Source: Mustelus asterias
Taxonomy: Eukaryota
NCBI RefSeq assembly: GCF_964213995.1
Contig: NW_027590140.1
Location: forward strand, 62,001-126,000
Direction: 5' to 3'
Length of the DNA stretch: 64,000 nucleotides
Position 1 is the first letter of the stretch; each line of letters begins with the position of its first letter. Positions 2,571 through 64,000 of the stretch are shown in pieces. The notes under the pieces were generated by a model, which was not told the DNA's origin, made no database searches, and was given only the letters and a program-made list of their open reading frames with translations. A program made the translations under genes and the position numbers.

Positions 2571-2913
2571 GGTTTCTTGCCGTGAATCTAACTTTTTATC
2601 ACTGTATGCCTCAGGGAGCAGAAATAAATTGCAGTGCCTCTCAGTTACAGCCCAGAGATGGGGAAAGTGAATTTTCTTGTCAAGCTGTTAAATTGCCCAA
2701 AAGAAGTATTTGGCAAAACCTGTCTCATCGCTGAACCTCCCGCGTATTTTATCAGAATAAGCTCTGGCTTTGTTTCAGGAATGTTGCCGGTAGCAGTATA
2801 AATCATTGCTGTCGCTCGGTGCAGGATTATAGATGGAGGTTAAAGTCACCGCTTCTCCTTCTGTCTTAACTCCTGAGAATAGCAGCTGCTGATAGCGTTT
2901 CCATGACTCAGAT
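2571..2913 (-). pseudogene. TCR alpha/delta-type V pseudogene (family of the 12.1 kb V)
   Basis: Reverse strand ttccag|ATCTGAGTCATGGA...GVKTEGEAVTL...YFCSLR with frameshifts and stops; degenerate RSS TACAGTG (2600-2606) and CAAGAAACC (2571-2579); probable decayed leader at about 3108-3157. Confidence 0.75.
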
Positions 2914-4089
2914 CTGGAAAAAAATGTTCCAATGGTGAAAGGTCAAACATGCGAGAATTTAAAAATCAGATTCGCAACATGTTGGAAGTAAAAGGACAAG
3001 TAAAATGTTTTGGATCCGCTAATGTCGTAATTGCCACCATTTTACAAATAAGAATACATTGTTTAGTGCGGTTAGGGGGAGAGTGGAGTATTACTCGGGA
3101 GGAAATACTAACTGAGATGTTACAGAGTTAGCAGGAAGGAAAGAGATAGTTCCGAATGTCGCTCCCGTTGTCTGTAACTCTGCAGACAATGAACTACTCT
3201 GTCAAAGCAAGTGCAGGTCCCCAACCACAGAACTACTCAGCCAACCGATGGCAGCCAGTGGATAGGTGCATCAATCTCCCCACTTCAGAGACAAGGGCAG
3301 GCAGGTCAAATGGAAACTTCCGACAATTGGCGCTGTTTACCTCCTGGGGTCTGTGCTTAAGAAATGATCGCGCTGTTCTCACTTTCTATCTCGTGTTGAA
3401 GTATTTCTATCTGTGAAACAAATCAACCCAAAAGACAGATTCTGGCCGGTGTGACTCGCTACAGAGGGTCATGTGTTTCTCTCAATTAGGTCCCCACCCA
3501 AGTGTCTGACTGGTACCTACAACAATATTAGATACATCATGTAGTAAAAACATTTCCTGCAATTTTACTCCAATTTTAATTGTAGACAGGGACTCGGGGA
3601 CACGGGTTCGAAGTGAAAAGTGCAATTCTGGGATAATATCGAAAAATGCTTCTCATTCACAGAAAGTGGTAAATGTGCGAAATAAATTGCCGGTTTGAAT
3701 GGAAGGTGGCTGGAACCCTAGATATTTAAGGAGATGTTTGCAGATATATTCGTACAGGGAGTTACGACATTTCCGTAAGTGGCTACATGACCTCCCTCAA
3801 TCCCAGTGATCACATGTACTGGAATGCACCAGGAACGTTATAGTGTCCAAAATGTCAACGCACAATTCTGAAGTTGCTCAGTTGGATGGGCGGCAGTTTT
3901 CAAGTTAGAAATAGAGGAACATTATGCTTATCAGAACTGGGGAAAATGTTACAGATGTAAAAGGTTTTAACATTTGCAGTGGTCGGTAAAGGCGGAAGAG
4001 CAGAAAGAGCGAAAGAGCAGGTCAGTAATTCAGTGAGAGTGGGCTTTATGGTGAGGAAATCATCCGCATTCTTTAATTTAAGGTTGATA

Positions 4090-4655
4090 TTCCAATGTCT
4101 CGAATTAGACATTTGGTCTATGCTCAAATGCAGTAAGATCTGGACAATACAAAGGTTTGGCCTGATAAGTGCAAGCAACATTCATGTCACACAAGTTCCA
4201 GGCAATGACCATCTCCAAAAGGAGAGGATTTAATCAACTTTCATTTATATTTAATGGAACTACCATCGCTGGATCATCCCTCCTGCTCCCCCACCCACCC
4301 CACCCCCATCAAAATCCTGGGAGCTGACCGAAAATGAACTGGACCCAGGAATTTAAATACAGTGGCTACCAGAGCTGATCAAAGGTAGGAATCCTGCGGC
4401 GAGTAACTCACCTCCTGACTCCCCAAAGCCTGTCCACCATCTATAAGGTACAAGTCAGGAGTGAGATGGAATACTCTCTAATTGCTTGGATGAGTTTAGC
4501 TCCAAGAACACTCAAGAGGCTCGACACGATACAGGAAACATCAGCCCGCTTGATTTCTACCCATTCCATGAACATCCATTCTTGCCACCACAGACGAACA
4601 GTGGCAGCCGTGTGCACCATCTACAAGATACACTGCAGCAACTCACCAAGGCTTT
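4090..4655 (+). mobile_element. CR1/L2-clade LINE RT 3' fragment (second family)
   Basis: HLLTPQSLSTIYKVQVRSEMEYS motif; similar copy at 20925-21380. Confidence 0.75.
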
Positions 4656-5015
4656 TTTTTTACGCAGCACAATCCAAACACACGAGTCTCTGTGCCCCGG
4701 ATTTATAATAATAGTCGTGTTGTTAAGTGAGTCTATGTACCGGTTATTCGACATCTCATTTGTTATGAACTACAGCAGACTTTGATCCATTCTGCACTTA
4801 AGCATAGGAACGAATGCCGAGGAGTCGGTGTCCATGGGCTCATCTGAGTTAACAATTCTGAATGAACAGCCGGCAATTGTCTGCCATATTGCCTCCACTT
4901 TTGAAAGCATCCTTCAGCTGATAGCTAGATACTCCTGGTATCTCCTTACTATATAAATCGCGGCATGGAGCTTAGTCTCGAGATTTCCCAAAGTGCTTCT
5001 CTGATGATTTGAACA

Positions 5016-5160
5016 AGATGTGGAGATGCCGGCGTTGGACTGGGGTAGAAAGAGTAAGAGTTTTAACAACACCAGGTTAAAGTCCAACAGGTTTATTTGG
5101 TAGCAAATGCCATTCGCGTTCGGAGCCCTGCTCCTTCGTCAGATGGAGTGGAAATCTGCT
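5016..5160. mobile_element. Short interspersed repeat, probably a Penelope-like terminal fragment
   Basis: GATGTGGAGATGCCGGCGTTGGACTGGGG...CACCAGGTTAAAGTCCAACAGGTTTATTTGGTAGC; reverse-orientation copy at 19004-19117. Confidence 0.6.
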
Positions 5161-5210
5161 CACATGTGTGCCTTGTTTGTTAACTTCATAGAGTTGTAAA
5201 TACCCGCTGA

Positions 5211-5748
5211 GGTTTTTGTACGGGTTTTAGCTGTAATCTAATGCTGTGCCTCACTGCACAGTAATAGACTGCCACGTCCTCCAAACTGGGGGCGCTTATA
5301 TTGAGGTGACCGTTCTATGTGGACTTGTCAGCAGCCGCCAGATATCATCCTGGAACTTCATTTTCTTTCACGACTAATGTTTTGGTAATAATCCCTCTCG
5401 GTGGCTGTGCAGGTTTCTGCTAATACCATTGCATGTATCTCATATACTCGTCTGTATAGTTACAATCGAGCTGCACCGAATCCCCTTGTGATGCGGTTAT
5501 TGCCACCGGTGACTGAGTTACTGGATCTGCGTACAGTCCACCTGTGAAGGTAGAGGAAAGAAATATCAAGACCTCATGTAAATTTGTTTTCTATAGGCGA
5601 TAGTTTGTGCAACCTCCCACCTACGCCGCACATGGATGTTTCTGATGGTTGATTAAATTGCCATCTGTGTGTATAAATATGTTCACGTGGCTTGATGAAT
5701 GTTATCTGGTACTAACTGCATGAGCGCCACCAGAATGATCAGCAGAAT
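5211..5748 (-). pseudogene. TCR V pseudogene, inverted paralog of the 23871-24456 V
   Basis: V exon 5249-5541 (293 nt, same length as paralog) GLYADPVTQSPVAITASQGDSVQLDCNY...WY*QK...VYYCAVR with 3 stops; leader ATG changed to ATT and donor damaged; RSS CACAGCA-22 nt-ACAAAAACC. Confidence 0.92.
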
Positions 5749-6249
5749 GTTCGAGTGAATCTCTTTCAGTGAATGAGAATGGACGGAATCAGAGAGTGAG
5801 AAAGAGAGAGGGAACCCAGGCTCTGTTCAGTTGATTGCAGCGTGTGACTGAGTGTATGACAATTTGTCTGTGTGGATGTGATTGTGGGGAGGGGAAGGGG
5901 AGTCTATTGTGACCTCACTAGCCTACCATCCATACAGGCTCTAGTGATAATGTCACGTGAGATTGTATCACCACCCCCCTCCCCAACATCTCTCCCCTCT
6001 CCAAAACCGGGCTTGAAATTGGCGCCCTCTGCTGACAAATGTTGCTTAATGCAAGTTCGCATTTGGCTGTTGAGTGGATTCAGGGTTTACCCCAATCCAT
6101 ACCAAGACACAAATGCTGCCCAGAAATCCGAATTAGTGTCTTTGCTACGTTTCCTGCTTATATCGTAAAATGGTGCTGAACCTGCGGACATCATTCCTGG
6201 AATTCTCTGTTCAAATCCTGGGTACACCGAAGTCTAGAGCATACCAAGA

Positions 6250-6585
6250 CTTTGGAAAAAGTGCCGGGTTGGGGAAGGTGTTTCCATGTAAGTAAAAGAG
6301 ACGAGGATCCAAGGGAACAGCCTCAGAGTAAATGGACGAACGTTTAAATCAGAGATGAGGAGGAATTTCTTCAGCCAGTGGGTGGTGAAATGATGGAATT
6401 CATTGCCACAGAAGGGTCTGGAGGTCAGGTCATTGAGTAGATATGTTTTTGATTTGTAAGGGGATCAAAGTTTCCGGAAAAAGGCGGGAGAATGGGGATG
6501 GGAAACTTAGCAGACACGATTGAATGGCGGAACAGACTCCATGGGTCGACTGGTCTAATGCCACTGTTATAGCTTATCGTCTTAA
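6250..6585 (+). mobile_element. CR1 3' fragment
   Basis: EMRRNFFSQWVVK*WNSLP followed by CR1 3'UTR; absent from the paralogous 23.4 kb region. Confidence 0.75.
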
Positions 6586-6724
6586 GAGCTTATGGTTATA
6601 AATCAGAATAGTGCCAGTGATCAACAGACTAATTTGGTTTATTTTGCTTACAAACAGGAAGGTACAAAGGCGACTCAGTTGATATGTTTAGAATTTTCCC
6701 CTTTTCAGAGAGTAAAATTTAATA

Positions 6725-6815
6725 TTATCGATACATTGTAAAGTCCCCGCTTCTCCTTCTGTCTTCAATGCTGAGGACAGCGGCTGAGTGACAGAATCTC
6801 AATGACCCATATCTG
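6725..6815 (-). pseudogene. 5' fragment of a TCR V exon
   Basis: ttccag|ATATGGGTCATTGAGATTCTGTCACTCAGCCGCTGTCCTCAGCATTGAAGACAGAAGGAGAAGCG (DSVTQPLSSALKTEGE); inverted paralog at 23147-23240. Confidence 0.7.
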
Positions 6816-7714
6816 GAAAAGGGTTGTCTTTGGAGGAGTTGGACTCATGAGAAAAGATTCTCCACCTCTGTGCGGTCTAAAATTTGAAAAAGAATGCCAT
6901 AAATAAAATCGCGGTAGAATTTATGATCGGGAATGTTTGAACAAACTTGAGTCCCGAAGGGTCACAGGAGGAAGAAAGCTTCACCTTGTAGTTCCATGCC
7001 GCCGCCACCAGAGGGCAGTTGGATACCGGATTGGGTTTCATGTCGGGGCGAATTCCAGACTCACAACCGCAGCCAGTAACAATATTGAGAAAATGTAACT
7101 AAAAGAACAAATGTCGAAACAGAAATATTATACTAGCATTGACAGCAAAAATATATTGCTTCACGGGATATAATATTATAACGTTCGTATAATTTGAACC
7201 AGTTTCAACCAGTTATATCCAGTATTTGTCGTTATACAACATATAATATCAATACATTTATTTAACGCAGGTGTCCTCATTCTGAATTGAATATCTCTGA
7301 AATATACAACATTTAATTGCAAACATGACTGACCAACAAAAGAAATCGAGTCACTGCGTAATACACATGCCATGCTGCTTATTTGAGATTGACCGCACTC
7401 ATCATTGTTTAAACAAAATCAAGTACTTTTAAAAAGGAAGAGATTTAGGAGTGATCTATTAACTATGTCAATCTGCACCATTATATTTTGCTGTACACTG
7501 AACGAGATGCTAATATGTACACGTTGTCAAAATAGAAAATTGTATTTCCTGTCAGTGCTTCAAAAAAAATCATAATTTCTTATCTTACAGAAAGCATCTG
7601 AGGTCGGGGTCAGAGCAAAGGTACAATGGCTGCAACATCGAGATTCGGACAATGTTCAGCAACAAACTGAAATCATACAGATTTCTCTCACCGTACATGA
7701 GGAAGCTGAATGAA

Positions 7715-7764
7715 CGCGTCTGTTCCGTTTTGTGCGAACTCGATAACCACTGCACTACCGAAAC
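7715..7764 (-). pseudogene. Heavily decayed tRNA-Val remnant in a repeat unit
   Basis: Reverse complement GTTTCGGTAGTGCAGTGGTTATCGAGTTCGC matches the tRNA-Val 5' half; flanks homologous to the 16.4-18.6 kb units. Confidence 0.65.
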
Positions 7765-8476
7765 AAATGACAGTGTAACACGCCAATTGGCCTGACCATA
7801 ATGCTCAACTCCTCTGTGTTGCTGCAGGTTCTCATGGTTAGATTGAGAGGCCATGTCACTTAATAGATGAACACATCCGTTACTTTCAATCTGATATTTC
7901 AACTTATCTTGTACTTGAAAATTAAAAAGCGTCCGTCCGCAGCTGTCTAAGGGAGTCATCCAGACACGAAACGTTGGCTCCAGTCTCTCTCCAGTGATGC
8001 TGTCAGACTTGCTGATATTTTCCAGCATTTTCTGTTTTTGCTTGTTGAAACCCCGTGATGTTAAATGCGAGAGTATCGCAAAATCCAGGAGAAACCTCAA
8101 AAACAAAAGAAAATGGAAGCAGCCGTTGAAATAATAAAATCAAAGCAATAAAACCCATAATAAACGCCCATACTACTCAGGCAGCGAAATCACACAGTAA
8201 TCCTGCATAATAAACTGAGAATCGCTGTTTCACAGACAATGTTCCGCTAGATGGCGCCCAGGACCTCATATTTAACTAAAACCTGCAAAGGGGTCAGTTC
8301 GTTGCTTGTTATAGCTGCCAGCAGAGTAGTAGGGGAAATATTCCTAGGCCGTTACACTTCCTTGCAATCGATAGCATGTTTAGGGCAAAAGATTGGATAT
8401 GGCACAATTGCACCGCAGGAGTTTTCTGCCGCAGTGGTCGGATCCTCATTCAGGTTCAAGTGCCTTCATTGAATCG

Positions 8477-9185
8477 TAGAATCATAGAATCATACAGCGC
8501 AGAAGATGGGCTCTTCGGCCCATCGAGGCCACGTTGTTACATTAAATACCAGAACTCCCACCTAATCTCATCTGCCAGCGCTTGGACAATCGCCCTGAAT
8601 GTTATGATGTACCAAGTGCTTATCCAGACACTTTTTTAAAGGACGTAAGGCAAACCGCCATCACCATTCTCCCAGGCAGCGTACTCTAGACTGTCACCAC
8701 CCTCTGGCTAAAAAGGTTTTCCTCACATTCCCCTGAAACCTCCTGCCCCTCACCTTGAACCTATTTCGCCTCATGACTGACCCTTCAATTAAGGGGAATA
8801 ACTGCTCTTTATCCACTCTGTCCATGTATCTCATAATCTTGTACACCTCGATCAGGTCGCCCCTCAGTTTTCTCTGCTCCAACGAAAACAAACCAAGCCT
8901 ACCAAACTCGCTTCATAACTTAAATATTCTATCCCACGTAGTATGCTGGTAAACATCTTCTGCACTTCCTCCAGTGCAATCACATCCTTCCGAGAATGTG
9001 GCGGCCAGAACTGCAACGGTACTCTAGCTGTGACCTCACCAAAGTTCTACACAAGTCCAACATGAGTTCCCTGCTTTTGCAACCTACGTCACGATTGACA
9101 AAGTCAAGTGTCCTGTATGCCTTTTTCACCACCCTACTAACATACTCTTCCACTTTCAGACATATGTGGACAAACACAAAGTTCC
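8477..9185 (-). mobile_element. CR1 3' fragment
   Basis: LCRTLVRSQLEY and LRGDLIEVYKIM ORF pieces; TAGAATCATAGAATCAT tail on the + strand. Confidence 0.85.
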
Positions 9186-10277
9186 ATTCGTTCCACATAA
9201 CACAAACTACCAATCGTGATGGTCACGTTCATAACGTGGTCGAACATGTTGATTATCAGCCTGTAAATCCTTTCAGTCTTGCTGATGGCAGGTGATGGGG
9301 ACGGAACAGATTCCTGGTCAATAATACTGCGGAAGTCAATGGCAAACCGCTGGAGTGCTTTGAAACCACAAAGTGATCAAATTGAAGTCCATGGCGACCA
9401 ATGCCCCATTGGGGCATGGTAACTGGGAGAGGAGGAGGTGGATGACACAGGAGGCTTAGAGAGTGGGCTCTACAAATAACTGCATTCCAATGTCACTAAG
9501 CAATCTGGGTAACAAGGTTTGCACAACGTTGCACATCAATAAACAAATCTTCTTAAAAATAACGGTGTCCACTGATCCTTATTTGTTAACCAACAAAACC
9601 ACAGTCTTCCATTATAAATTAATGTCGGTACTTGAAATTTTGATTAAATTAACCCGTCAGGCCTGCTTCGACAGCACCTTCCGAATCCGGAATCTCTTTC
9701 ATCTCTAAGGATAAGAGGAACAGATGCACGGGAACACCACATTCTGTGGCACCACTTCAAGCCACACACCATCCTCATTTTGAACCATATCGCCGTTCCC
9801 TTGCGTCAAAATTCTGGAAATCGTTTTGTGCTTTGGATTACAGGCAGAGGACAACCAATTCGAAAAGTATGGAAGGAGAAATGAAAGAAGGTGTGTCATT
9901 ACGAGTGCGAAATACAAAGCCAACTGATGGGGGGAGGACAGAAAGGAAGAGATTCAGAAATGACACAGAATGCACTGTTCTTTCAATTCATTTATATTTC
10001 CCTCGCGTCTGTTTATATAGTTCAATTGTTTGAAAACACGTCTCTCAATAAAAGGCCGCTGGAATCTGCCCATCGACAACCTTGCACTTGCCGACAGTGT
10101 CACGTACTCTGAGTCACCGTCAGAGGGCGCAGTCGTCACATGTTTCTCCAAGCTTGAAATGACGCGGGCAATGTCTTTGGTACCATTGGCATACCGTTGC
10201 TATTGGCAACAAAACCCACAGTCTCTCTCTCTCCCCCTCTCTCTGGCCCACCTCACGTATCCTGCATTACTGAATGG

Positions 10278-10480
10278 GCGGTACGGTGGCACAGTGTTAG
10301 CATTGCTGCCTTACAACGCAAGGAATCCAGATTCAATTCCGGCCTTGGGTGACTGTGCGGAGTTTGCACGTTCTCTCCGTGTCTGCCTGGGTTTTCTCCA
10401 GATGCTACGGTTTCCTCTCACAGTCCAAAGATGTGCAGGTTAGGTGCATTGGTCATGCTAAATTGTCTCTTAGTGTTACG
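10278..10480 (+). mobile_element. HE1-type SINE
   Basis: GGCGGTACGGTGGCACAGTG-TTAGCATTGCTGCC head and conserved core. Confidence 0.8.
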
Positions 10481-11969
10481 GGGATATTTCCCGAACTGTA
10501 GAGTTATAGACTCGGGGAGAAGGAAGCAGAACCACAACGGACCTCTCCTCATCAATGTATCACTTTTCACTTCGCGTTTCCTTCCCAATTGAAAGTAAAG
10601 AATGTGCTATTCTCCTGAACGCTATAACTCAGGCATTGCCATTATTCAAATGAGATGAACTCTTTTTAAAAAATTATTCATTGGGCGTCGGTGACAGGAC
10701 AATATTTCTGTCCATCACCAATTGCCCTCGAACCAGGCTGGGATATTTGAGAGTTCGTTGTATTGTTGTTGTTCTGTAATCACACACAGTCCAGGCCATG
10801 CTAGGCTGGCATATTTCCTTCCACAAAGTGCATTAGTGAACTAGGTGAATTTGTAGTGAAATTTGTGGTGCGTTCAGGCACCATCGATGCGACTAGCTTT
10901 CAATATCAATTAATCACATTTAAATTTAACCTTTACTTTTCTAAATTTAAATTTTGACTACTTTTCTCCAAAATCGAATTGAAATATAACGAGTTGATAC
11001 GGTGGAATTTGAACTAATTTTCCCAAAGCATTACTCTGGGCTCGTGAACTACTTGTCCAGTGACCCCCATGTTGATAATGATTAAGAAGAAAAAGCGCAA
11101 GTTCTTAAAGTTGACACTTCCTAGTACATTATATCAGAATGGGACCACAACCACACAGTGCATCGGGTTGTCTCTGAGTGGACCTTTGAAGAAACGGCAA
11201 TGTCACAATTAGCTGCACCATGACAATTTCATATCCTAACCCTGCTGATTTCAGACATGGTCAGCTTTCAGGACAGCACCCACAGTACACGCTTTACATT
11301 ATCTCAGGAATAATATACAGGCAACTGGACTTCATTGCTTGGTTTCTCTGTACCTTTAGTAAAACAACGAAGATTGCAAGGTATCTCACAGCCTGTCCAC
11401 CGATAACTGAACATTCGAACATAAAAATTAGGCTGCCTGCAAATTTGCTCTACCATTCAGTCAGATTACAGTTCATCTGATCTTCCGTTTAAATCCACTT
11501 TTCTGCCTTGATCTTCGTGAACCGTGACATTAATTTTAGTTAAAATGTTGGTTTCACTCAGCTTTAAAAATCTTCTGTCCCATGGCCTCCACCGTTCTCT
11601 GGACTCTCACTGAGTCTCAGGCACCAATGCTCGGATGGTAAAGCTAAGAGAATGTGCACAGAACATTGATTGGAAATCCACCAAATCCATCAACACTCCT
11701 TGCTCCTCCGTTCCAATAACAAAATTAAGGTTTTTTTCTTGACATCCCGTTTCCAAAGCGGAACAATTCGCCCAACAGGGACACCGAATGGTTGGGGAGC
11801 TTCTATTCACTGACAGTCACCAGAGCAGTTACCAATCTCACGGTGACACTGGCGAGACACGAAACTGACGCGTGAGCATTCTGAGACACGTCATCAGATT
11901 ATTAAGGGTGGGGATTAGAATGGGTGTCTTCAAATATCGGATTCCCTCTTTACAGAGCGGACAGAGACA

Positions 11970-12427
11970 ATGGGGGTACTCGGCATCTGGATTGTGTGGG
12001 GGGCATTTCTAACAGGTATTTCTGGACATCACGTTTGTTTACTCATTTCCAAAACTTGGGTTGAATCTTACTGTTGAGTCACGTCACTCTATTCTTTATC
12101 TATTTGAACATATTTTCCAGGTCTGACCCATGGAGATTCTGTCACTCAGCCGCTGTCCTCAGATGTTAAGAGAGAAGGAGACGTGGTGACATTAAACTGC
12201 AACTATGATACTGCAGAAGCCGACTATTATTTATACTGGTATCGACAGCATCCAGACTCCCAGCCCGACTGCATACTGTGGAAGGATTCGGGGGATGATG
12301 AATATAAAGCAGATTTTGCTAAAATCCGTTTCTCGGCTGACCTCCAAACCTCGAAGAAATCCATCAGTTTGACTATCTCGGGTCTGCAGTTGTCTGACGC
12401 GGCCGTGTATTACTGCGCTTTCAGCCT
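11970..12427 (+). CDS. TRAV: TCR alpha/delta variable gene segment, apparently functional (leader 11970-12015; V exon 12121-12427)
   Basis: Leader MGVLGIWIVWGAFLT(G), phase-1 GT-AG intron, then LTHGDSVTQ...TLNCNY...LYWYRQ...LTISGLQLSDAAVYYCAFSL; open frame followed by an RSS. Alpha versus delta usage cannot be determined. Confidence 0.93.
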
Positions 12428-12466
12428 CACAGTGATGGAAAGCAGTTTGACTCCTGTACAAAAACT
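12428..12466 (+). promoter_or_regulatory. 23-RSS (recombination signal sequence)
   Basis: CACAGTG, 23 nt spacer, ACAAAAACT. Confidence 0.95.
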
Positions 12467-13636
12467 GTCTCAGCAAGGCAAGTGAGAGCTCCTCTCTACT
12501 GTGTAAAACCTCTCGCAGATGCAGCCACAATCAGCAGCGGCACTGTCAGCCGCTCAAACAAACACTGAGAGGAAACCACATGAACCTCGGATCAAACTGT
12601 CACTCAACTGTCTCCAGGAGAGGCCGAGAAAACAAACTGCAGTATCGTTTTAGGCCAACAGGCCCACCACATAATGAATGTGTCACTTAATTCGTCCCTT
12701 CTACTACTAATCAGCTCTGTATTCCTCTAAAATTAGATCTCCAAATATCCGTCAAACCTGGCCGTCAAGCGTCACACAAAAAGCAGACGTACAGTTCGCC
12801 ACGTTTGAGTGATGTCCTCTGATCCCGAAGTCCCTATTGGTCCTTTCCTGCATTTTCTGTGCCTGCCTATCATATTGAACATCCATCGTTCCATCTCCCT
12901 TTTCAGTTTCTGGGAGCCTTTGAGGGCGGGGAGTTCATAGCGTTTATTTGATCATTATTGCTACATTCGAGACATTTTGCACACCTTGGACACATTTCAT
13001 AAGGCTGTGACATTGATTTCTCAAACAAGCCTGAAGTACACAGCAGCCAATTTCCACATCTCCCTGACTGTCTCCACCGAGTACTAGGGTAGCATTACAC
13101 TTCATATCATATCCGCCTTATTCATCTGTTTCTCGCTACTCCTTATTTCTGCAAATCAGATTAATATTTCAATCCTGTTAAGGAAACATTGTGAAATTCA
13201 CTGGCCATTGGTGTAAATCTGTACAAGGGGCTTGTTTGAATGATCAAAATTAAAACGTTGTGAAATCTGTTCAGTTTTCATAAACTGCCTCTGACCCAAA
13301 TTCTGATCAAATAAAAGCGCAGAACTGACCTCGGGTCAAAGGTTCCAGAAATCTGACAGGGAAGATGGAGAAGGGTTGTTCGGTGTTACAGACAGGTATG
13401 GAAACAGCTTCAAAACACCAAGTGAACTAAACAGATCAAATACATTTATAAAGGCGAGCTTTATTATGAACGTGAGTTAAAATCAACTAATTAAATTCCG
13501 CAAGTGTTCCTCGCTCCTTCTTATGGATGGTTATATTTTGTTTTTTGGGAGGTCCCTATGACTCTCATTAGGTTTAATTATTGCTCCTATTTATCTGTGT
13601 GACAGCGCCATCTGCTAACTGAAACTCCCATTGTGA

Positions 13637-21852: not shown

Positions 21853-21933
21853 TAGATATCAAACGGTTAGGTGTCCAACGCTGGCAAATGCATTTCCTAT
21901 AGACCCTGGCTGTTTCTGGGAAGATGCATTTTG

Positions 21934-32099: not shown

Positions 32100-32104
32100 C
32101 CTAT

Positions 32105-34790: not shown

Positions 34791-34799
34791 GGGGGACTT

Positions 34800-53383: not shown

Positions 53384-53907
53384 CTGTAAATACGGAGTAT
53401 TGTTCAGACCATATGAAATTTCCGCTGAAGCAATTCTCGAGGGAGTTCAGTTTAAACTATGATATGGATGTTATATTCACAAGAGATAACAAGGAGCCAA
53501 AAACCTGCTTCGGGTCCAACTGAGGCGTCTTTCTGTCGAGCTGATGAAAGAAGTTGAGGCTCAGGCTTTATCCGCCCACAATCATTGACATCGATTTGCC
53601 TGGAACCTGAGATGAAGGACTGAAGCCTGAATAAATAAACCCCACCAGCAACCCCGAACTTCCGGTTACAAATCTAGTCTCACGTGTCTATCTAAGACAC
53701 CATTTCGTCCTATCTGAACACTGACTGATCTCAGCTCGGGATGAATCCATTCACTGGCAGGCAGTTCACCTGCCACCTACACCACAGCGCCACCGCGGAC
53801 ACAGGGAAACTCAGTGAGAGCATCCTGAGACATGATAGCAAAATATACAGGGTGAAGTTTAAAACGGGTGTCTTCAAATATCCCACTCCCCTTTTACAGA
53901 AAAGACA

Positions 53908-54373
53908 ATGACAAGGCATTTGGGTTGTTTGTGGAATAGTCGTAATAGGTAATTGTGAACCAAACACATTTCATATTTATTTTAATTTTACAAACGTGGT
54001 TTAAAATTAAATTTTAAGCATTCAGTCGGTCTGATTTGTTTCTGCTTGAGCAGGTTTTTCAGATCTGAGTCATGGAGATTCTGTCACTCAGTCGCTATCC
54101 TCGGAAGTAAAGACGGAAGAAAAAACGTTGAGTTTAAACTGTACCTATGATATTATAATGAGCAACTACGTTTTACCCTGGTCCCGGCAAAACACAAGCA
54201 CGCAACCTGTGTTTCTATTGAGGAAAAACTCGATATTTGGTGAAGATATAGCAGATTTTGCGAAAAGCCGTTTCTCTGGAGAGCTTCAGACATCGAGTAA
54301 ATTCACCGGTTTGACTATCTCGGGTCTGCAGCTGAATGACGCTGCCGTGTATTACTGCGCTCTCGCTGAGATG
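53908..54373 (+). pseudogene. TCR V with open V exon (54063-54373) but frameshifted leader (53908-53948)
   Basis: LSHGDSVTQSLSSEVKTEEKTLSLNCTY..PWSRQ..LTISGLQLNDAAVYYCALAEM; the leader is 41 nt versus 46 nt in the paralog, so the ATG is out of frame. Confidence 0.85.
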
Positions 54374-54412
54374 CACAGTGATGGAAAGCAGTCTGACTGC
54401 TGGACCAAAACT
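54374..54412 (+). promoter_or_regulatory. 23-RSS
   Basis: CACAGTG, 23 nt spacer, ACCAAAACT; spacer nearly identical to 12435-12457. Confidence 0.9.
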
Positions 54413-54579
54413 GCCTTTAACTATAGATTGAAACCCTGTCTGCGGCGGGTTGCACAGAACCGCGGGCAGATGCAGCCACAATGTAACTGTCAGCCATGCA
54501 AGAATCTTCATGAACCTGGGATCAGCCTTCATCCAAGTTTCCAGTATCCTGCCACTTCAGTCATTATGTCTCTACGAGA

Positions 54580-54917
54580 GCGGCACGGCAGCACAGTGAT
54601 TAGTTCTGCTACTTCACAGCTCCAGGAACCTGGGTTCGAGTCCCGTCTTGGGTCACTGTCTAGTAGAGTTGCACGTTCTCCTCGTGTCTGCGTGGGATTT
54701 CTCCGGATGCTCCGGTTTCCTCCCACAGTCGAAAGATGTGCGCGTTGATTGGCTCTGCTAAAATTGTCCCTCAGTGTCCTGAGGTACGTAGGTTAGAGGT
54801 ACTAGCGGGTAAAGATGTCGGGATATAGGGGTAGGGCCTGGGTGGGATTGTGGTCGGTGAAGACTCGATGGGCCAAATGGCCTCTTTCTGCACTGTAGGG
54901 TTTCTATGATTTCTATG
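54580..54917 (+). mobile_element. Full-length HE1-type SINE
   Basis: GCGGCACGGCAGCACAGTG head through TTTCTATGATTTCTATG tail. Confidence 0.9.
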
Positions 54918-55574
54918 AGTCTGTAAGATCAGTCAGTGGTGGGTTGGCTGATATTGAAAGGAAACCCCTCGAGCTGGGTTGCTTTCAGCACCTCGATAGG
55001 GGAACGGATACACTCTTCCAGATGGGGTTGCGGGAATGAAATCCTGCTCTGTTAATTAGCAGCTGCAAATTCTGGGTGCTCATAGTAACAAAAACATTCC
55101 AGCATTAAGGAAGCATTCTGTAGTTCACTGGTCACCGGGGGAATTCTATTCTCAATGTTTATTTTAAAGATCACAGTCACTTCCTTCTGAAATCTCTTCA
55201 TTGTTGATATAGTTTCTCTGAAGCAGTGAAACTCTCATCGGATCATTTAAACCCAGAGAACAAGCCGCGGAAAAAAGGCTTCAAAACCTGATGGGGATTG
55301 AGTTGCTGAATATTAGGCAGACACGGAAACTGAATCAAATGACAATTACGAAACTAAAGAGATCAAATAAATTTAAGAAGATCAGCAATGGTACAACTGC
55401 GAGTTGAAATTAACAAATACAATTCCTCAAATATTCCTTACCCCTTGTTGAGGTTGTGTTTTGCTCTGATATTTTAGGAAGGCACCTGTGATTCTCTCGG
55501 TGGAGAGTGAATTATTCTTTCTATTTATCGGTGCGAGAGCACCCTCTGAAGGTACCTTACTGGAACCCCAGTGT

Positions 55575-56020
55575 GGGGTTTGTCCAGGAACCGCTCTAAC
55601 TCTGCAGCAGTGTAGGCTCAATGGCACAGAAATACCCAGCGCTGTCGGAGTGAAAAGCCCCGCCTTATTTAAAAGAGCAGTTTTGTTTCATTTGTGCAAA
55701 CAGCAGAAAGTCTGGCAAATCTTGAGACGAATCTCCCGCACTGCATCATCACTTTTCTGGTAGACTGGATGTACCAGAGCAGAGTTGGTTCACGGTAGGT
55801 TGCTGACTACCGACCGCCCGGTATTGTGCTCTGTCCTTCCTGAATTGTTGATTCAGAAGGAGCCTGTGACAATGAATCATCGCTATTGGTTCCGATAACA
55901 CAAATACAGAGCGTTCCAAAAGTCAGAAATTAAACACAACTCCTGGATAATACACTGGCTGAACAGAGACTCGCCAGACAGGAAGACCATTATTACCAGT
56001 AAGGAACAAGGGGGACACAT
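55575..56020 (-). pseudogene. TCR V pseudogene (paralog of 13637-14108)
   Basis: Leader MCPPCSLLVIMVFLS(G)|GCGAGT at 55975-56020; TNSDDSLSQAPSESTIQEGQ..TLLWYIQ..SDSAGYFCAIE; internal deletion; degenerate RSS TACACTG...ACAAACCCC. Confidence 0.82.
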
Positions 56021-57314
56021 GGTAATTCCTTTGGAGTTCGACAGAAAAACACAAGTTATTCTCGATGTGTTGATTCTTCTAATCTGATATAAAGTGTAAC
56101 CCAGATCAGAATGTGGCTTCACTTACTCAGAAACTGCTGGTCGAAGTGGCGCACCAATAAATGGGAGTCGGAGAGAATTATTAAGGCTGATTGCTTCTCT
56201 TTCTCTTTCTGACATTGTCAGGGTTTCCGCCTCGCTTTTCTTGTCTCTGTCTCTGTCAGTTGTTCGTTCTGCCGTTCTTTTCGAAGTGCCATGAAAATGC
56301 GGAGTTTAGAAAATCTAACTTGTTGCAGAATTTCATTTTTAAAAATCCCCATAGGAAGTACTCTGTTAATAGTAGCAAAATATTTCTGTATTTCAGAGAT
56401 AAGTTTGAAATTACAGCGGTTAGGCAAAATGCTTAATTTAGGGGGAATCAGGGCAACATTAATTCCCTCTGCATGCGGCACAATAACAGTTGCAAGTGTG
56501 TACATTAATCCCCAAATGCAATCTCCAGGCAAAATCTCCCATGGGCAATGGGGAACAAAGTTCGCAGAGAGTGGATGGTGACAAAAGGGCAAATGCGCCA
56601 CCCGACCTCCTGCTGCAAACTTTCATCCCTCATAATATTGTACAATATTCACACTTCAGCAACCGGGTCCCAGGTCCTGCCATCGAGTGACTGAACCTCT
56701 CCTTGACTCACAAAGGCCAGCGCTTGCAGTAAGTGAAGGCCGCCAGCAGATGGTGATATTGTATTATTTTAGTCACAAGACAGTGAAACTCCCGTTTCAA
56801 CTCACAGTTAGATTTTCGGAATATCAGCTTGACTGGAATAGTACCGTTCCAACACTACCACCACCATCGCAAAGGAAACTGGCAAAGTGCAATAAATGCT
56901 TGACTCGGCATCGAAGCCCACACTCGGTAACATCAATTTTTAAATGGTTTATTTTGGGGACATTTGTGGCGTCTCCTCCCCCAGTGGCCCAGAGTGAGGC
57001 GGAATTGCTATTAGTTTCACCCTGTGTGAGCTGACAATTATTTCGAGAGGTTCATGATCAAAAATACCATTCCAAGAAATCTCCTGTCCAAGACCAGTTG
57101 TATGCGGAGCAAGACAGGCTTGATGTAAAGATATAAAACGCACAGGTGTTTCAATTCTGATAAGTGAGTTATACATATTGGCCCAGAAACGTGGAGGAGG
57201 ATTATCATTTTTCATTCTTGAAATGGCGACCATGGGATATTTTAACTTTGCATCAGAGAGCGCGATCTAGATGATGGTTAAGTATCACATCCAGGGAAGC
57301 AGCACCTCGGGTAG

Positions 57315-58330: not shown

Positions 58331-60305
58331 AGGTGGATTATATCCCGCTCACTGAACCTTTGTGTAGTATTTAAACAACATCCGACTGAGTCACAAACAA
58401 AATTCACACCAACTTTCCAAAACTTTTCAGTGATAAATTCCTCCATTTGATTAAAAAGCCGAGTGTTGTGAATCTGGAAATGAGCACCATGGGATTTGTG
58501 TTACCCAGTGACTTGTTTCCCATTTTTTTAGTCCTCAGATTTGCAATTCCATTTGTGTTGTACATTGAGGCGAATCTCATTTCAAAATGAGGAGAAAATA
58601 TTACATCCATGAACAAACCCTGAAGGAAATGGATCACAATATTTCGATGGAGGTGCAACTGTGAATGGTGTTATCGATGATTGATTGGAAAGGATTGGAT
58701 TCAGGGGCCTCTGGTGGTCAGTTCCCTTCCCTCCCGTTGAATTCCTCTCTGTGATTAGAGACATGGGTTAATTTAACTTGCACGTCCGTAGGGGAAAGAG
58801 ATTAACCGCTACACCACAGCAATACTACGGGACCAAAATAAGCAAATAGATTTGTGTAGAATTGTAAGCGATATTGTCATGCTGTCGTTCTGGAACAGGA
58901 TTTGCAGAAACAGAATAGTGGACATTGACACCTTAGTTCAGAATCTCTTGTGCCGTGGCAGTCTCAGGCAGTTGGTCAGCGCGTTCGGGAATTAGTTGAA
59001 AGGTTGGTGATTCGAGACCACCCAGCGGCGGAGCTTTTACTTTTTTCTCCGCATCATCGTTCATCAGAGCTGCAGACAAAGATATTTGGACGAGATTTAT
59101 ACTGTAATGGTGAGGGATATGGGTGTGGGGTGTGTGACAAAGTTGTCACATGTAAAGAAAGAAAAAGTGTATTTAAATGGTGGTGACAATGGCTAAGACG
59201 GTGGCTGTCTATTAAGACATCAGAATGTGTAAATGGCAGGACAAACGAGTGGGGTGGAGGGAGAGGAGGCAACAAGATGGAAAGTGAGTTTTTAAATAAA
59301 AAATGCAAAACATGGAAATTAGAATATATATATATAAGAAGATATAAAATAATAAAAATAAATAAATAAGATAAAATGAAATAAAACAAGATAAATGGAA
59401 ATGCAGTAAAGATGGGAGCTGATGTGATTGAACTCAGTGTTAAGTCCGGAGCGCCGTTAGTGCCGAATCGGGAGATCGGGCGATGTTCCTGCAGTTTGCA
59501 TTGGAGTGCCTCCTGATACCATTGTTTATTGCCCCTTTTGTCACATTAATGATGATCAAGAGTAGACTGGTGGTAATTGGCGGCGTTGAATTTGACCTGT
59601 GCAAATTGTAGCAATAGCGGTTGCTGCGAGTGTTGTAGCTTAGGAACAGCTTAGCTAAGATTGCGGCAAGTTCTGAAGAGTAACTCTTCAGCACCGTTGC
59701 CAGAATACTTTTCAGAGCCATCGCATTTGCTCTCTCCAATGTTTTCAAGTTTTTTTTCTTGAAATCAAATGGAATAGTGAAGTGTATCTGTTCCGTTCAG
59801 TATCTACCCCACTCTGGCTCTATCTTTCTTTCTCTTTATAGATCTGACTAAATCCTTCCCTCTCTCGGTCTAATTATCCATTCCCCTCATTTGATTTTGT
59901 TCCTTCTATTCTCTCCCAGACTGGGTGGAACCAAGTTTCTTTGAATTGATTCCTGAAAGGAGGCGGTTGTTGAGTTGGGGGGTGATTTTAGGTGGCGGAG
60001 GAGACTCAATGGTACATGTGACCTAATCTAACTCCGTTGATTCTGTTCATTGCCAATGCAAGCTCTGATAGCAATGACTTCTGCTGTTGTCGTTGATGGG
60101 AAGTCTGAGACACTAAATTTAGGATTAGCGATATTTGCAGAGGGGTGGCATCAAATCGAACCACTGTCCGATTTTCACTTAAATTGCTACAAACACATGA
60201 TTAGCTTCGGTCAAACATGTGATTCATAAAATTCAATGCAGCAGAATGCATCATCATTATTTTTGATTAGACGAACCAGCAGAGAGAATGTGAAGTGAGC
60301 AACTG

Positions 60306-60623: not shown

Positions 60624-60697
60624 GTTTCTGTAGTGCAGTGGTTATCATGTTCGTCTCACACGCGGAAAATTCGCCGCTTGGAGACGGGGCAGAAACG
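60624..60697 (+). pseudogene. tRNA-Val(CAC) pseudogene
   Basis: GTTTCTGTAGTGCAGTGGTTATCATGTTCGTCTCACACGCGG...GGGGCAGAAAC; T-arm and B box degenerate. Confidence 0.8.
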
Positions 60698-61390
60698 TTT
60701 CTGAATCGCTTTATTTAAAAACGAATCAGATTTCAGAATTGTTCTCGTTTCTCACGAAACATGAATTGAGCTGTTGATATTTTTACGGCATTTAAGACGG
60801 GAATCACTCAGTAAATAATATAAAAGGAAAGGTCTGCGATAGTGAGCAAGACAGGGTGAATTAACTGACACAAGGAATAACGGACAAGGGCAACATTGGT
60901 TGGTTCCCATTATTTTTACACTTTGCTGCTTGTCTGGGTGAACTCCTGTTCTCCATTCCTCCGGCAGTATCACCGCTCAAACTGAGTCTCCATCCTGCTG
61001 TGTTAATCTCTCAGTTACTGCTATCTGAATGAAAACTGCTTGCAATCAGTCGAAGTCAAATAGTTTAGTGTTTCATTCAGTGGGAAGTTTTCTTGTCATT
61101 TAGCCGAGATTTTTATCCAGAAATGAGTGATATTTCTCTCAATGCAAACGGTTACATCTGACAATTACCACCCAGATTTGCCTTGTGGCACCATCTCCAT
61201 CGTCAGCACTTTGCATCCTATCACTGCCCTTCACTATCTGTGTTTGTTCTTGACCTGTTGTCCACGTGACATTTCCAACTCGGAAGCAAACTGCAAATCT
61301 CACTCCACTGATTTTAGCAGAGCTGCTTTGGACCAGGGAGTATTGCTGATTTGTTTATAAAAATCACTAAATCTTAATATATCGATGGCA

Positions 61391-61438
61391 GTATGTAACC
61401 CGGAAAGCGCCGAACCCCTAACCACGAGACCACTACGA
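61391..61438 (-). pseudogene. tRNA-Glu(TTC)-like remnant
   Basis: Reverse complement GTGGTCTCGTGGTTAGGGGTTCGGCGCTTTCCGGGTT matches Glu with an internal deletion after the anticodon. Confidence 0.55.
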
Positions 61439-61837: not shown

Positions 61838-61909
61838 CGCCTGCTGGTGTAATGGTGAGCACTCTAGACTTTGAATGCAGCTATCCGAATTCAAATCTCG
61901 GCAGAACCT
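61838..61909 (+). pseudogene. tRNA-Gln(TTG) pseudogene
   Basis: TGGTGTAATGGTGAGCACTCTAGACTTTGAATGCAGCTATCCGAATTCAAATCTCGG; acceptor stem mismatched. Confidence 0.8.
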
Positions 61910-62219
61910 TGCTTTTCCTTTGCCAATGCCGATGATTGATTTGCTGAAGGACATTTCGTTTAATTTTCCCACAAAGTACGAATCGAGAGGACAATTTGTC
62001 AGCCAGTTCAACAGCTATTACAACGTACATTGCTGAGCCTCTGGCGCCAGATGCCTGCCAAGTTTAGCGTTTTTTTTTCATTTCTTCGCGACTCTTTAAC
62101 CCCTCTGTTGAAAGAAAGGAGCAGTTGGTTTCACACAAAAACAATTATTGGCAGTTATTGAGCGTGTGTGTGTATCTGATTTGAGAGAAAGGCCTAGTGC
62201 CTGAGGTCAGAGTGCTTTC

Positions 62220-62261
62220 GGTTGCATGGTGTAAGTGATAGCATACTGGACTCTCGCATCC
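62220..62261 (+). pseudogene. tRNA-Gln 5' half remnant
   Basis: GGTTGCATGGTGTAAGTGATAGCATACTGGACTCT. Confidence 0.55.
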
Positions 62262-62535
62262 AAACTCTTTCTAAACTTGTGACAGATAACTGAGTGAATG
62301 ACACCTGTAGATGGACCCCCTGCCCACAATGGCTCCCCTGCCTCTCAACGCTTTTTATTCTTGACCAGTCGTCCTCTGGGGCTGAAGCAATGATGCCAAG
62401 AGAGTCATTCGGTGCAGGGGGCGCAAGTGTGTTGGAATGTGTTGAAGTTTCCTCAGTGTTTAGATTTGCACTTACTGAGAATTTTAAATAAAATGCCAGC
62501 AGCAAACTCATCAGCGGCTTCAGCAAAACAATGCA

Positions 62536-62607
62536 AGTCTCTGCCGCTATTTGAACTCGAATCGCTGGATTCAGAGCCCAGAGTACTCAACGTCACACCA
62601 CAGATCC
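62536..62607 (-). pseudogene. tRNA-Gln(CTG) pseudogene
   Basis: Reverse complement GGATCTGTGGTGTGACGTTGAGTACTCTGGGCTCTGAATCCAGCGATTCGAGTTCAAATAGCGGCAGAGACT. Confidence 0.78.
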
Positions 62608-62839
62608 CAGAACACACCGACCACCCAAATGGTTCCTCGAAGTATTTGACCTCTTTCATTCAACGTGGCAGCAACAGCAAGTGCGACAACAATGTGTCGT
62701 TATTCGCCACTGTTGATAGGGACGAAGCTCAGAAGACATAGTCCCCCAATCTACAGCCAATCATTTCCTTCACAAGCGCTATCGGAAGGTATCAGCAGAA
62801 ATATTTTACATGATGTTTGCAGCTCATTGGTGCGTTCTC

Positions 62840-62911
62840 TGTTCCGTGGTGTAATGGTGCGCACTCTGGCCTTTGAATCTGGCAATGGGAATTCACGTCT
62901 CGGCTGAGCCT
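62840..62911 (+). pseudogene. tRNA-Gln(TTG) pseudogene (duplicate of 61838-61909)
   Basis: GTTCCGTGGTGTAATGGTGCGCACTCTGGCCTTTGAATC; about 150 nt of downstream flank shared with the 61.9 kb copy. Confidence 0.78.
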
Positions 62912-64000
62912 TACTTTCCTTTGCCAATCCTGAAGATAGTTTGCTGAAGGACATTCCGTTTAAGTGTTTCACAAAGTTCGGATCGAGAGGACAATTTGTC
63001 AGCCAGTTCAACTGCTTTTACAATGCACATTGCTGAGTCTCTGGCGCCAGATGCCTGCAACATCAGTGATCTTCTATTTCATGATGTGGATTTACCGGCG
63101 TTGGACTAGGGTGTTTTTATTCACAAACACGACATATGTAGACAGAGACGCAATTGCAAGATAATGGTTGGAGAATTTTGGGAGAAGTGGTTGGAGACTT
63201 TTGGGAGGAAGGCCGAGTGTCCAAGGTCAGAGTGCTGTCGGTACCTGGGGGTCACGCATATCACGCATATCTGGACTCGCGCCGTCCCACGTCTTGTTTA
63301 AATTGGGACAGATGAGTGAGTGAATGTCCCCCGTAGATTCACACCCTGCAGAATATATATTGACTTAGTAACATAGTTTGAAATGATTAATCCTCATTTT
63401 GCTTCATTCCATGTCAAACAGGGTGAAACATGCTTGGATCTTATTATTTAAAACGTCAAACCCTGAACTACTTAAACAGGTCAGGTTCAGTCGAAGAAGA
63501 CTGATCCACATTGAACCGACAAAATGTTACTGGAGTTGCTGCAAATCGCACCTCAAAATGGATCATGTCGGCAACACTCAGCAGGTCAAACAGCATCTAT
63601 TGAGAGAGAAACAGAATGAATGTTTCGGGTCGCTGACCTTTTATCCAAACTGGGAGAGTTTATAGATTTAATGGGTTACTAACAAATACAAAGTAAAGGG
63701 ACATAGGGTGCGAAAGGAGGAACGGTCAAACATCCTTGTGATAGGATGTAAGGCTGGAGTGATTCAATGGCAATGGGGATTGTTGTTTCCACTGACACAA
63801 TCTCCCAGATCTGTGTTCAAATTTCGCGCAAAATGAGAACAAACCTTTTTGCTGAATTAAGCACTAAACACTTCGACGTCCAGGGAAGCAAAGATAACTT
63901 CAACTCAGAAGTCAGTAACTGTAAGATTAACAAAGCGGGCTGGAGAAAGACTCAGTTTGAGCGGTGGCACTGCCGGGGGAATGGAGAGCAGGAGTTTACT

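Follow-up and report, generated by a model that had tools for sequence, protein, structure and literature searches.

Of the TCR alpha/delta V segments in the window analysed here, a 64-kb stretch of Mustelus asterias DNA, two are intact and at least seven are broken. They share it with an intact tRNA-Arg(ACG) gene, 11 decayed tRNA genes (Val, Gln, Pro, Asn and Glu-like), a C2H2 zinc-finger (ZNF) remnant and an intact GPR139-like GPCR. Four RSS with 22- or 23-nt spacers lie 3' of V exons, at 5248 (minus strand), 12428, 24418 and 54374, and Pfam V-set matches all three open V exons. V1 (11970..12466, plus strand, ATG at 11970) and V2 (23871..24456, plus strand, ATG at 23871) both have a split leader in phase, an intron with splice sites, a V-set exon with both cysteines and the tryptophan, and a 23-nt-spacer RSS on the 3' side (CACAGTG/ACAAAAACT for V1 and CACAGCG/ACAAAAACC for V2), as expected of an intact V segment. 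V3 (53908..54412, plus strand) has an open exon and a 23-nt-spacer RSS, but its 41-nt leader is out of phase and it is likely a pseudogene. The V of a whale shark V-J-C-delta gene model (not a cDNA) shows 66% identity to V1, and the C of that model matches C-delta of Mustelus asterias.

The remaining V sequences are relics. On the minus strand are a copy with stops, frameshifts and an RSS that appears decayed by eye (2571..2888, 40% to V1 by tblastn), a pseudogene with three stops and a 22-nt-spacer RSS that is an inverted paralogue of V2 (5211..5540, 84%), a 5' fragment of a V1-family exon (6720..6820) and two frameshifted copies (13654..13965 and 55560..55897). The plus strand carries a second 5' fragment of the V1 family (23139..23290) and a V fragment cut off by a CR1 LINE (25549..25696).

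The tRNA-Arg(ACG) gene (20452..20524, minus strand) has a TTTT run 8 nt downstream. Twelve further candidates were aligned to reference tRNAs from the same genome, with a reversed-sequence control that reached at most 20-26; 11 scored 39-106 (four Val, four Gln, and single Pro, Asn and Glu-like copies), and the twelfth, at 63238, scored 16 and is recognisable by flank homology alone. Reversed controls gave no tRNA-like matches. The original prediction of RSS-bearing V segments alternating with one intact tRNA gene and about 12 pseudogenes of five isotypes is therefore borne out, except that 11 pseudogenes score above the control. Four lie on the minus strand between 7725 and 22500: a tRNA-Val 5' fragment without a B-box (7725..7764, 27/31 in the alignment), a tRNA-Val that has lost its 3' acceptor strand and kept the B-box core (16818..16890, 56/61), a tandem copy of the latter's cassette whose tRNA-Val is without a B-box (18025..18097, 44/49, flanks 74% over 999 nt), and a decayed tRNA-Pro(CGG) that keeps its B-box core and has an insert at position 37/38, where canonical introns sit (22411..22500, 68/85 to an intact intron-bearing Pro). 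Further along are tRNA-Asn (58957..59030, plus strand, 50/63), tRNA-Val(CAC) without a B-box (60624..60697, plus strand, 62/72), a 5' fragment (61385..61437, minus strand) that we take to be Glu-like from an assumed consensus and another fragment rather than an intact reference, and four tRNA-Gln pseudogenes (61838..62911; 61838 plus, 62218 plus, a fragment, 62536 minus and 62840 plus). The Arg gene keeps the B-box core, as do 2 of the 11 pseudogenes; the other nine have lost it. Elsewhere in the genome, removal of an 18-nt insert after G37 from the intron-bearing genes is predicted to give Pro(AGG) with a normal cloverleaf; ARAGORN alone had offered an Ala identity with a non-canonical 34/35 intron site, which we rejected in favour of the canonical 37/38 site. 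Nine tRNA-headed SINE copies (2310..54761) were excluded from the tRNA gene count.

The ZNF remnant (34799..35490, plus strand) retains about three open fingers, the others being broken; the predicted C2H2 identity is confirmed by a Pfam zf-C2H2 match (34856-35143, E 9e-17), beyond which come stops and frameshifts. The GPCR (39544..42509, minus strand; exon 1 from 42509, exon 2 40454-39544) is intact and of rhodopsin class, scoring 64.7 bits with 7tm_1. It is an orphan receptor as predicted, but the suggested likeness to olfactory receptors was rejected, given a 7tm_4 score of 16.9 bits under a cut-off of 27; among the 120 relatives listed, 117 are named GPR139-like or carry similar orphan labels and none is olfactory. 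In a young CR1-type LINE (28997..32833, minus strand) the APE-RT frame is open over 1011 aa and ORF1 is of the esterase type; an inverted copy of the element, 98-99% identical, lies at 35765-38384. Using a consensus that we assume to be that of CTCF, we found nine CTCF-like motifs (6023..56755; at 6035, 7005, 8244, 10117, 14493, 22952, 23593, 52211 and 56743), the majority of them within 2 kb 5' of a V segment or V relic.

Block duplication and selection on the tRNA genes

The V-tRNA-tRNA-V cassette is present in copies that are 0-20% diverged. Its Val-Val-Arg-Pro-V2 form aligns over 2-8.5 kb with 13 paralogues at about 1, 2, 6, 10 and 20% divergence, and the Arg-Pro-V order is preserved in lineages 20% apart. 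Dead tRNAs were copied together with their lesions, and for the decayed Pro(CGG) there are 13 near-full copies, of which 8 are identical. The tRNA pseudogenes share 150-1000 nt of flanking sequence and therefore originated by DNA duplication.

The intact tRNA genes are under purifying selection and the rest decay neutrally. Four paralogues of the Arg gene show 0, 1, 1 and 0 differences over 73 sites, whereas their 300-nt flanks are 20-25% different, and it is the whole 73-nt body that is conserved, not the B-box alone. When 20 distinct copies of intron-bearing Pro(AGG) are compared with one reference, the two exons differ by 0.7% and 1.5%, the intron by 18% and the flanks by 14-21%. A V is present within the 3 kb examined at 10 of 12 intact Pro loci, these loci being copies of a few cassettes.

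Enrichment and genomic setting

The density of tRNA-like genes is above background, with 8 per 200 kb on scaffold C71 against 0 per 380 kb in macrochromosome samples; a density equal to background had been named as grounds for abandoning the original prediction. Intact tRNAs on C71 number 3 per 200 kb, or about 15 per Mb. In evenly spaced samples, tRNA was found in 3/20 C71 loci against 0/38 background loci (p 0.037) and ZNF in 9/20 against 0/38, the loci sampled for these and the following placement statistics not being independent of one another. The best Arg(ACG) and Pro(AGG) matches fall on C71 or small scaffolds in 36/40 and 39/40 cases, respectively. This tRNA density characterises the scaffold as a whole and not the V cassettes: V and tRNA occur together in 2/40 loci (1.6 expected), and 3/36 V segments have a tRNA in the 2 kb on their 5' side (2.7 expected, p 0.53). 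CTCF-like motifs are found within 2 kb 5' of 13/36 V segments (4.9 expected, p 0.001) and also 3' of 9/36; taken alone, scaffold C119 has such a motif at 4/14 V segments, which is not significant (p 0.27).

The window belongs to the shark antigen-receptor complex, which combines IgM with TCR alpha/delta, and not to the MHC. All 150 V1 relatives scored are confined to C71 and small scaffolds, 63 scaffolds in all, and IgM-type C exons with a secretory tail are present at 521-524 kb of C108, the scaffold of the window. Nineteen TCR-delta constant exons lie behind D and J segments on 17 scaffolds (C71, C119 and 15 others), with NARTCR in the same field as TCR delta D-J-C, as expected of the elasmobranch complex. 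C108 itself gave no C-delta match, and a J pattern search returned delta-type J segments only. The possibility that the window is an orphon unlinked to J and C segments was also examined; it is not an isolated orphon, because a near-identical duplicate on C119 shares that scaffold with a D-J-C-delta unit. PSMB5 lies with Ig C exons on a separate scaffold, C185, unjoined to C71 or C108 in this assembly.

An extended MHC class I identity was considered and rejected on lack of linkage to MHC class I and on the non-olfactory GPCR. All 140 PF00129 matches place MHC class I on scaffold C8, seven samples of which contained no tRNA and no ZNF matches. The predicted MHC-like neighbourhood holds to the extent that the shark Ig/TCR alpha-delta complex is described as an MHC paralogue in the huchr14/9 MHC paralogon (Flajnik et al. 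2025, PMC12227049). Taken as a whole, the original interpretation keeps its MHC-paralogous setting and its tRNA and ZNF enrichment, and finds no support for the MHC itself, an olfactory GPCR or an insulator role; its contrast with mammals is overstated.

Origin and role of the interspersed tRNA genes

The tRNA genes are probably passengers in this part of the antigen-receptor complex, carried along by the joint birth-and-death duplication of V, tRNA, GPR139-like and ZNF sequences in multi-kilobase blocks, and not regulators of V segments. Unequal crossing-over between repeats would drive the duplications, and intact tRNA-Arg and tRNA-Pro copies may be retained for tRNA supply. CTCF would be responsible for any looping or insulation close to V promoters, and the partners of the intact V segments would be D-J-C-delta units or J-alpha segments in other parts of the complex. 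Against passenger status, intact tRNAs are numerous in the complex (36/40 best Arg and 39/40 best Pro matches), so active Pol III sites could still shape chromatin. The preserved Arg-Pro-V order and the V segments close to intact Pro genes also weigh against it, as do the CTCF-like motifs on the 3' side of V segments and the non-significant result for C119. A bolder alternative makes the complex the main reservoir of Arg-ACG and intron-bearing Pro-AGG genes. Its active tRNA genes would then be an ancestral trait of the TCR alpha/delta region, visible to this day at human 14q11.2, and would serve as Pol III/TFIIIC hubs, holding a field of at least 20 Mb in an accessible state and dividing the V segments between about 19 TCR-delta mini-loci; we regard this as unlikely.

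A role for tRNA genes between V cassettes, whether as TFIIIC-dependent barriers or as elements of open chromatin, is improbable, despite the barrier and enhancer-blocking activity described for tRNA genes and TFIIIC-only B-box sites (PMC12409998, in part) and the selection on numerous intact copies. An insulator role is poorly supported and appears to fail on position, given the near-random placement relative to V segments, and on the B-box, as 11 of the 12 window loci are decayed, nine of those 11 without the core, and conservation of Arg does not single it out. Moreover, with 9.4 B-box motifs per 100 kb the window shows no excess over macrochromosomes (15.3 per 100 kb), because SINEs supply B-boxes genome-wide. 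The tRNA-headed SINEs, which a generic tRNA model scores at up to 38 bits, are present everywhere at densities of 12-23 per 100 kb and raise the question of whether the pseudogenes are SINE heads or chance matches. With SINE overlaps removed, the 11 loci still score far above control against intact isotype-specific genes and have genomic flanks in common with intact tRNA genes, and together with the macrochromosome background this refutes such a reading, leaving it hardly any probability. It is also doubtful that the field-wide counts are mostly uncollapsed haplotypes around a real but local interleaving. The scaffolds are mostly small and unplaced and some copies (L210/L211, L213/L217/L218, C106/C115) are only 0.0-0.2% apart, but divergence is graded up to 20%, 7 of 8 sampled C-delta regions are more than 1% distinct, three on one scaffold are 2.1-2.5% apart, and the evenly spaced C71 samples are enriched by themselves.

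Compatible with the passenger explanation, since it concerns origin only, is the possibility, which we entertain tentatively, that tRNAs have stood beside TCR alpha/delta since the jawed-vertebrate ancestor or a proto-MHC, human 14q11.2 keeping the linkage. The paralogon placement and the PSMB5-Ig linkage on C185 favour it, as do a human chr14:21.08-23.40 Mb cluster of 16 tRNA genes that includes four Pro genes and Arg-ACG-1-3 (PMC8113476, supplement) and the location of 5 of 7 human Arg-ACG genes in the chromosome 6 cluster. In horn shark, a V match and many of the closest GPR139-like proteins lie on contigs of equal size (59,489,666), and the V-GPCR neighbourhood looks old on this sequence evidence. 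On the other side, the reported turnover of tRNA synteny is about as fast as that of unconstrained sequence (PMC2888827, in part), Val, Gln, Asn and Glu, most of the window isotypes, are not in the human 14q11 cluster, 22 of 23 human Pro gene rows are without an intron, the GPCR is not olfactory and C185 stands unjoined.

These results add a genomic setting to a complex central to ideas on the origin of adaptive immunity, and present the shark Ig/TCR field as a domain of co-amplifying multigene families, as in zebrafish 4q. Duplications driven by immune genes also alter tRNA gene dosage. Paralogous cassettes in which the same V has live or dead tRNA neighbours offer a natural experiment on the effect of tRNAs on V accessibility. 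The textbook contrast in sharks, Ig in miniclusters but TCR in a single translocon, would become less sharp with C-delta units multiplied in this way.

Comparison with known systems

Human TRA/TRD presumably lies within the tRNA cluster at 14q11.2. The claim that mammalian TRA/TRD arrays are not known as tRNA clusters is in that case overstated, although it stands for the array itself: the human tRNAs flank the V array, with none at 21.16-23.39 Mb, whereas those of the shark are inside and co-amplified. The two loci share Pro and Arg-ACG genes near orthologous TRA/TRD, and differ in the Pro intron, present in the shark genes and lacking at human 14q11.2. The extended MHC class I region at human 6p22 contains olfactory receptor and ZNF genes. 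There, as in the shark field, immune genes have tRNA genes, ZNF genes and an expanded family of GPCRs next to them; tRNA and ZNF clusters, a trait of that region, are present on C71. The shark window differs in that it is not on the MHC scaffold and its GPCR is GPR139-like, not olfactory. With 157 tRNA genes in 2.67 Mb (PMC8113476), 6p22 has about 59 per Mb, whereas the intact tRNAs of C71 amount to about 15 per Mb.

In the elasmobranch complex, as far as described in PMC12227049, TCR alpha/delta V exons of either orientation lie among IgM clusters, there are NARTCR cassettes, and PSMB5 is close to Ig C exons; all of these have counterparts here. That description differs in presenting TCR alpha/delta as a translocon, whereas Mustelus asterias has its 19 C-delta exons on 17 scaffolds. 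The available main text makes no mention of tRNA, zinc finger or GPR, and tRNA, zinc finger and G-protein coupled do not occur in the available supplements. The closest analogue is the long arm of zebrafish chromosome 4 (4q), where, in the account available from bioRxiv 10.1101/027151, an expanded immune family is irregularly interspersed with multi-C2H2 ZNF genes and with tRNA, snRNA and rRNA loci, an arrangement attributed there to local co-duplication. The immune genes of 4q are innate NLR-B30.2 genes, whereas those of the shark are RAG-rearranging segments that must be accessible.

Contents of the window

Re-examination of the window (C108:62001-126000, on a 1.41-Mb scaffold of the 3.68-Gb Mustelus asterias genome, G000) bore out the inventory of the original prediction, as the V segments, tRNA loci, ZNF remnant and GPCR were all re-identified. 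The TCR alpha/delta V segments V1 (ATG at 11970) and V2 (ATG at 23871) are intact, the leader of V3 (53908..54412) is out of phase, and the pseudogene V5249 (5211..5540, minus strand) carries three stops. Six V relics are present besides these, and each of the four RSS lies 3' of a V exon. The nearest named relatives of the window proteins are shark proteins, and PDB matches to the V exons are chiefly multi-domain antibody constructs. Arg(ACG) is the sole intact tRNA gene. Eleven of 12 further candidates match references from the same genome with scores well above controls, comprising four Val, four Gln, Pro, Asn and a Glu-like fragment. Nine SINEs with tRNA-derived heads were kept out of this count, and ARAGORN at relaxed thresholds was left unused, its 12 to 207 calls being mainly noise. 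Position 2571, a candidate tRNA-Glu relic, had no homologue; a V relic lies there, and the site is its RSS.

The predicted GPCR is present as a two-exon gene. Domain profile search rejected an olfactory receptor, and the closest relatives form an elasmobranch family that carries the label GPR139-like (1880 matches), of which the gene is a member. This family is very large; among the best 128 of 5941 candidates, which were scored, six lie on C1-C26, and members occur throughout scaffold C71, at C75:16.9-17.3 Mb and at C23:11.7-12.1 Mb. The literature searched yielded no paper on it. The ZNF remnant is bracketed by two inverted CR1-type LINEs, 98-99% identical (28997-32833 and 35765-38384), one of which has an open 1011-aa frame; the pair are possible inversion substrates. 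A short open frame at 45698-46102 (minus strand) resembles, by eye, the C-terminus of an LTR-element integrase and has no Pfam match.

The surrounding antigen-receptor complex

Relatives of V1 place the window in a wider setting: all 150 scored (the best 150 of 1773 candidates) are spread over 63 scaffolds, namely C71 (20.4 Mb) and small ones, and IgM-type constant exons occupy the same scaffold set, including exons with a secretory tail on C108 itself, 400 kb from the window. PSMB5 and Ig constant exons occur together on C185, a scaffold separate from C108 and C71 (L228-L229, 100-110 kb and 260-270 kb); the constant exons there are multi-domain and, by their tail, IgW-like. Table S1 of PMC12227049 gives the same order of PSMB5 and IgW. 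The region is what Flajnik et al. (2025, PMC12227049) describe as the antigen-receptor complex, where TCR alpha/delta V exons lie among IgH clusters.

A C-delta query gave 19 matches from 112 candidates, all open and spread over 17 scaffolds, with three on C71 (7.14, 11.04 and 12.27 Mb), the others on 16 scaffolds (L131, L137, L140, L143, L145, L150, L159, L166) and none on C108. The exons form two subfamilies approximately 17.5% apart, their closest relatives (80-97%) are labelled Mustelus asterias, and D and J segments precede them where examined. An RSS-plus-J pattern matched 20 times (control 1), always on C71 or small scaffolds and within units that combine a NARTCR V and its supporting V with D, J and C-delta; the NARTCR double-V is present in gene models and on scaffold C119. 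This multiplied arrangement resembles a set of miniclusters more than a single translocon, and the mainly open-access literature searched has no paper on it. No J-alpha was recovered by the J pattern or in the 80 kb behind the C119 C-delta, which is no evidence of absence. Positions 22-61 kb of the window have a near-identical duplicate on C119, approximately 390 kb from a NARTCR V/D/J/C-delta unit; the duplicate lies downstream of that unit in the same orientation, and its plus-strand V would therefore not use that unit.

Redundant haplotypes may account for a few copies that differ by 0.0-0.2%. Nevertheless, the graded divergence, the seven distinct classes among eight C-delta regions and the presence of three copies on one scaffold speak for a largely real multiplication. 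Word depth of the C-delta contigs exceeded that of some neighbouring repeat contigs (two runs, one sample), which is not a measure of copy number. The contigs examined from sequencing runs span introns and do not bear on rearrangement.

Density and origin of the tRNA loci

Counting by nhmmer with eight intact tRNA references (>= 20 bits, SINE overlaps removed, isotypes lacking a reference being under-detected) gave eight loci in the 64 kb of the window and eight in 200 kb of other C108 stretches (5/20 loci, six of the loci having been picked near IgM, V or GPCR matches). Evenly spaced C71 samples held eight in 200 kb (3/20 loci), the Gln and Asn matches being circular because those references came from C71 samples, versus none in 380 kb of macrochromosomes (0/38 loci); density in the field is above background. 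GPCR clusters elsewhere gave one in 130 kb, the MHC region none in 70 kb and reversed controls none. Rfam at gathering score returned four on C71, three on C108 and none in background, each in 150 kb (15 of 20 loci each), and a covariance model at approximately 21 bits or more, SINEs removed, returned six, nine and, on macrochromosomes, none. Fisher p for tRNA loci against background was 0.037 for C71 and 0.005 with C108 added, although loci are not independent. ZNF matches likewise fell in 9/20 C71 loci versus 0/38 background loci. The dense tRNA sites of the genome are elsewhere: tandem Lys/Thr arrays on C16 (97.2-98.6 Mb, L001-L030, 1.8-kb unit) hold one gene per ~0.9 kb, and a tRNA-Cys cluster lies at C11:101.8-103.4 Mb (L091-L093). 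The field does hold most best matches for two isodecoders, in lists biased to close copies of the query. Of the best 40 Arg(ACG) matches (325 candidates), 36 map to C71 or small scaffolds, and in 31 cases the scaffold also has a V, IgM or C-delta match; for intron-bearing Pro(AGG), the figures are 39 of the best 40 of 648, and 32.

The window Pro (22411-22500) is a dead member of a tRNA-Pro(AGG) family of at least 40 genes (L221:515-604; L230-L258) in which 18 nt are inserted behind position 37, where tRNA introns canonically lie (37/38; PMC4090602). Exons of intact members are conserved (0.7% and 1.5%) and the intron is variable (18%). The human list gives 23 Pro rows, 22 of them without an intron.

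The cassette of Val (16818), Val (18025), Arg (20452), Pro (22411) and V2 gives kilobase-long alignments to 13 paralogues that are 1-20% diverged, and the flanks of the Val pseudogenes match those of intact Val genes (C119, C436 and C115) over approximately 1 kb. The tRNA loci arose by block duplication at the DNA level, not by retroposition. Of 13 near-full copies of the decayed Pro(CGG), eight are identical, indicating that damage preceded copying. Arg differs at two of 292 sites over four paralogues whose flanks are 20-25% different, and is under purifying selection; one Arg copy, in a 10%-diverged paralogue, has decayed (8/73 sites). Co-duplication is the best explanation, and a probable one, for the interleaving of V, tRNA, ZNF and GPCR. 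The interleaving itself is a real feature of a known complex, undescribed so far as the literature searched shows; that literature, mainly open-access, has no report of tRNA genes or of GPR139-like genes within the TCR/Ig region of sharks.

Alternative readings and comparison with known systems

It had been proposed that tRNA genes serve as insulator or open-chromatin elements between V cassettes. Barrier activity is known for tRNA genes (PMC12409998), and the intact ones might add to it here, but the sequence gives no sign of such a role and we regard it as unlikely. Of 36 V segments or relics, 3 have a tRNA locus in the 2 kb upstream (2.7 expected), V and tRNA share a ten-kb locus in 2/40 cases (1.6 expected), the B-box core is lost in 9/11 tRNA pseudogenes, and B-box motifs are no denser in the window than on macrochromosomes. 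CTCF is found at mammalian V-alpha promoters. A match to the CTCF consensus (CTCF-like motif) stands upstream of 13/36 V segments or relics (4.9 expected, p 0.001), and 9/36 have one downstream; upstream of V on C119 alone the result was not significant. The window has such motifs at 6035, 7005, 8244, 10117, 14493, 22952, 23593, 52211 and 56743, a density of 14 per 100 kb against 2.6 on macrochromosomes, and most of them are 5' of V segments. The motif GAACTACA, which resembles a Staf/ZNF143-type site, adjoins those at 7005 and 22952.

An ancestral tRNA linkage to TCR alpha/delta, which would be compatible with co-duplication, is possible though doubtful. Human TRA/TRD presumably lies in a tRNA-free gap at chr14:21.16-23.39 Mb. 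PMC8113476 lists 16 tRNA genes at chr14:21.08-23.40 Mb, including Pro and Arg-ACG, and none at 21.16-23.39 Mb; the statement that mammalian TRA/TRD arrays are not known as tRNA clusters holds for the gap but not for the wider interval, and a cluster with the same two isotypes surrounding the presumed locus favors the linkage. A horn shark V match and many of the closest GPCRs apparently share one contig, which suggests an old V-GPCR linkage. On the other hand, tRNA synteny is short-lived (PMC2888827), and seven samples of the shark MHC region, a small sample, contained no tRNA or ZNF matches. The predicted MHC-paralogous neighbourhood stands on published gene evidence (PMC12227049, which gives the complex an MHC-paralogous origin) and not on tRNA content, and MHC class I matches fall entirely on C8 (140/140). 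ZNF copies are described around MHC-Ia-like genes in PMC10751288. Among known systems, zebrafish 4q comes closest as a working analogue: its NLR genes are mixed with ZNF, tRNA, snRNA and rRNA loci (10.1101/027151). A large-subunit (LSU) rRNA fragment (L034:9495-10000) and a U2 snRNA-like copy (L034:204-395) also lie on C108 20-30 kb left of the shark window.
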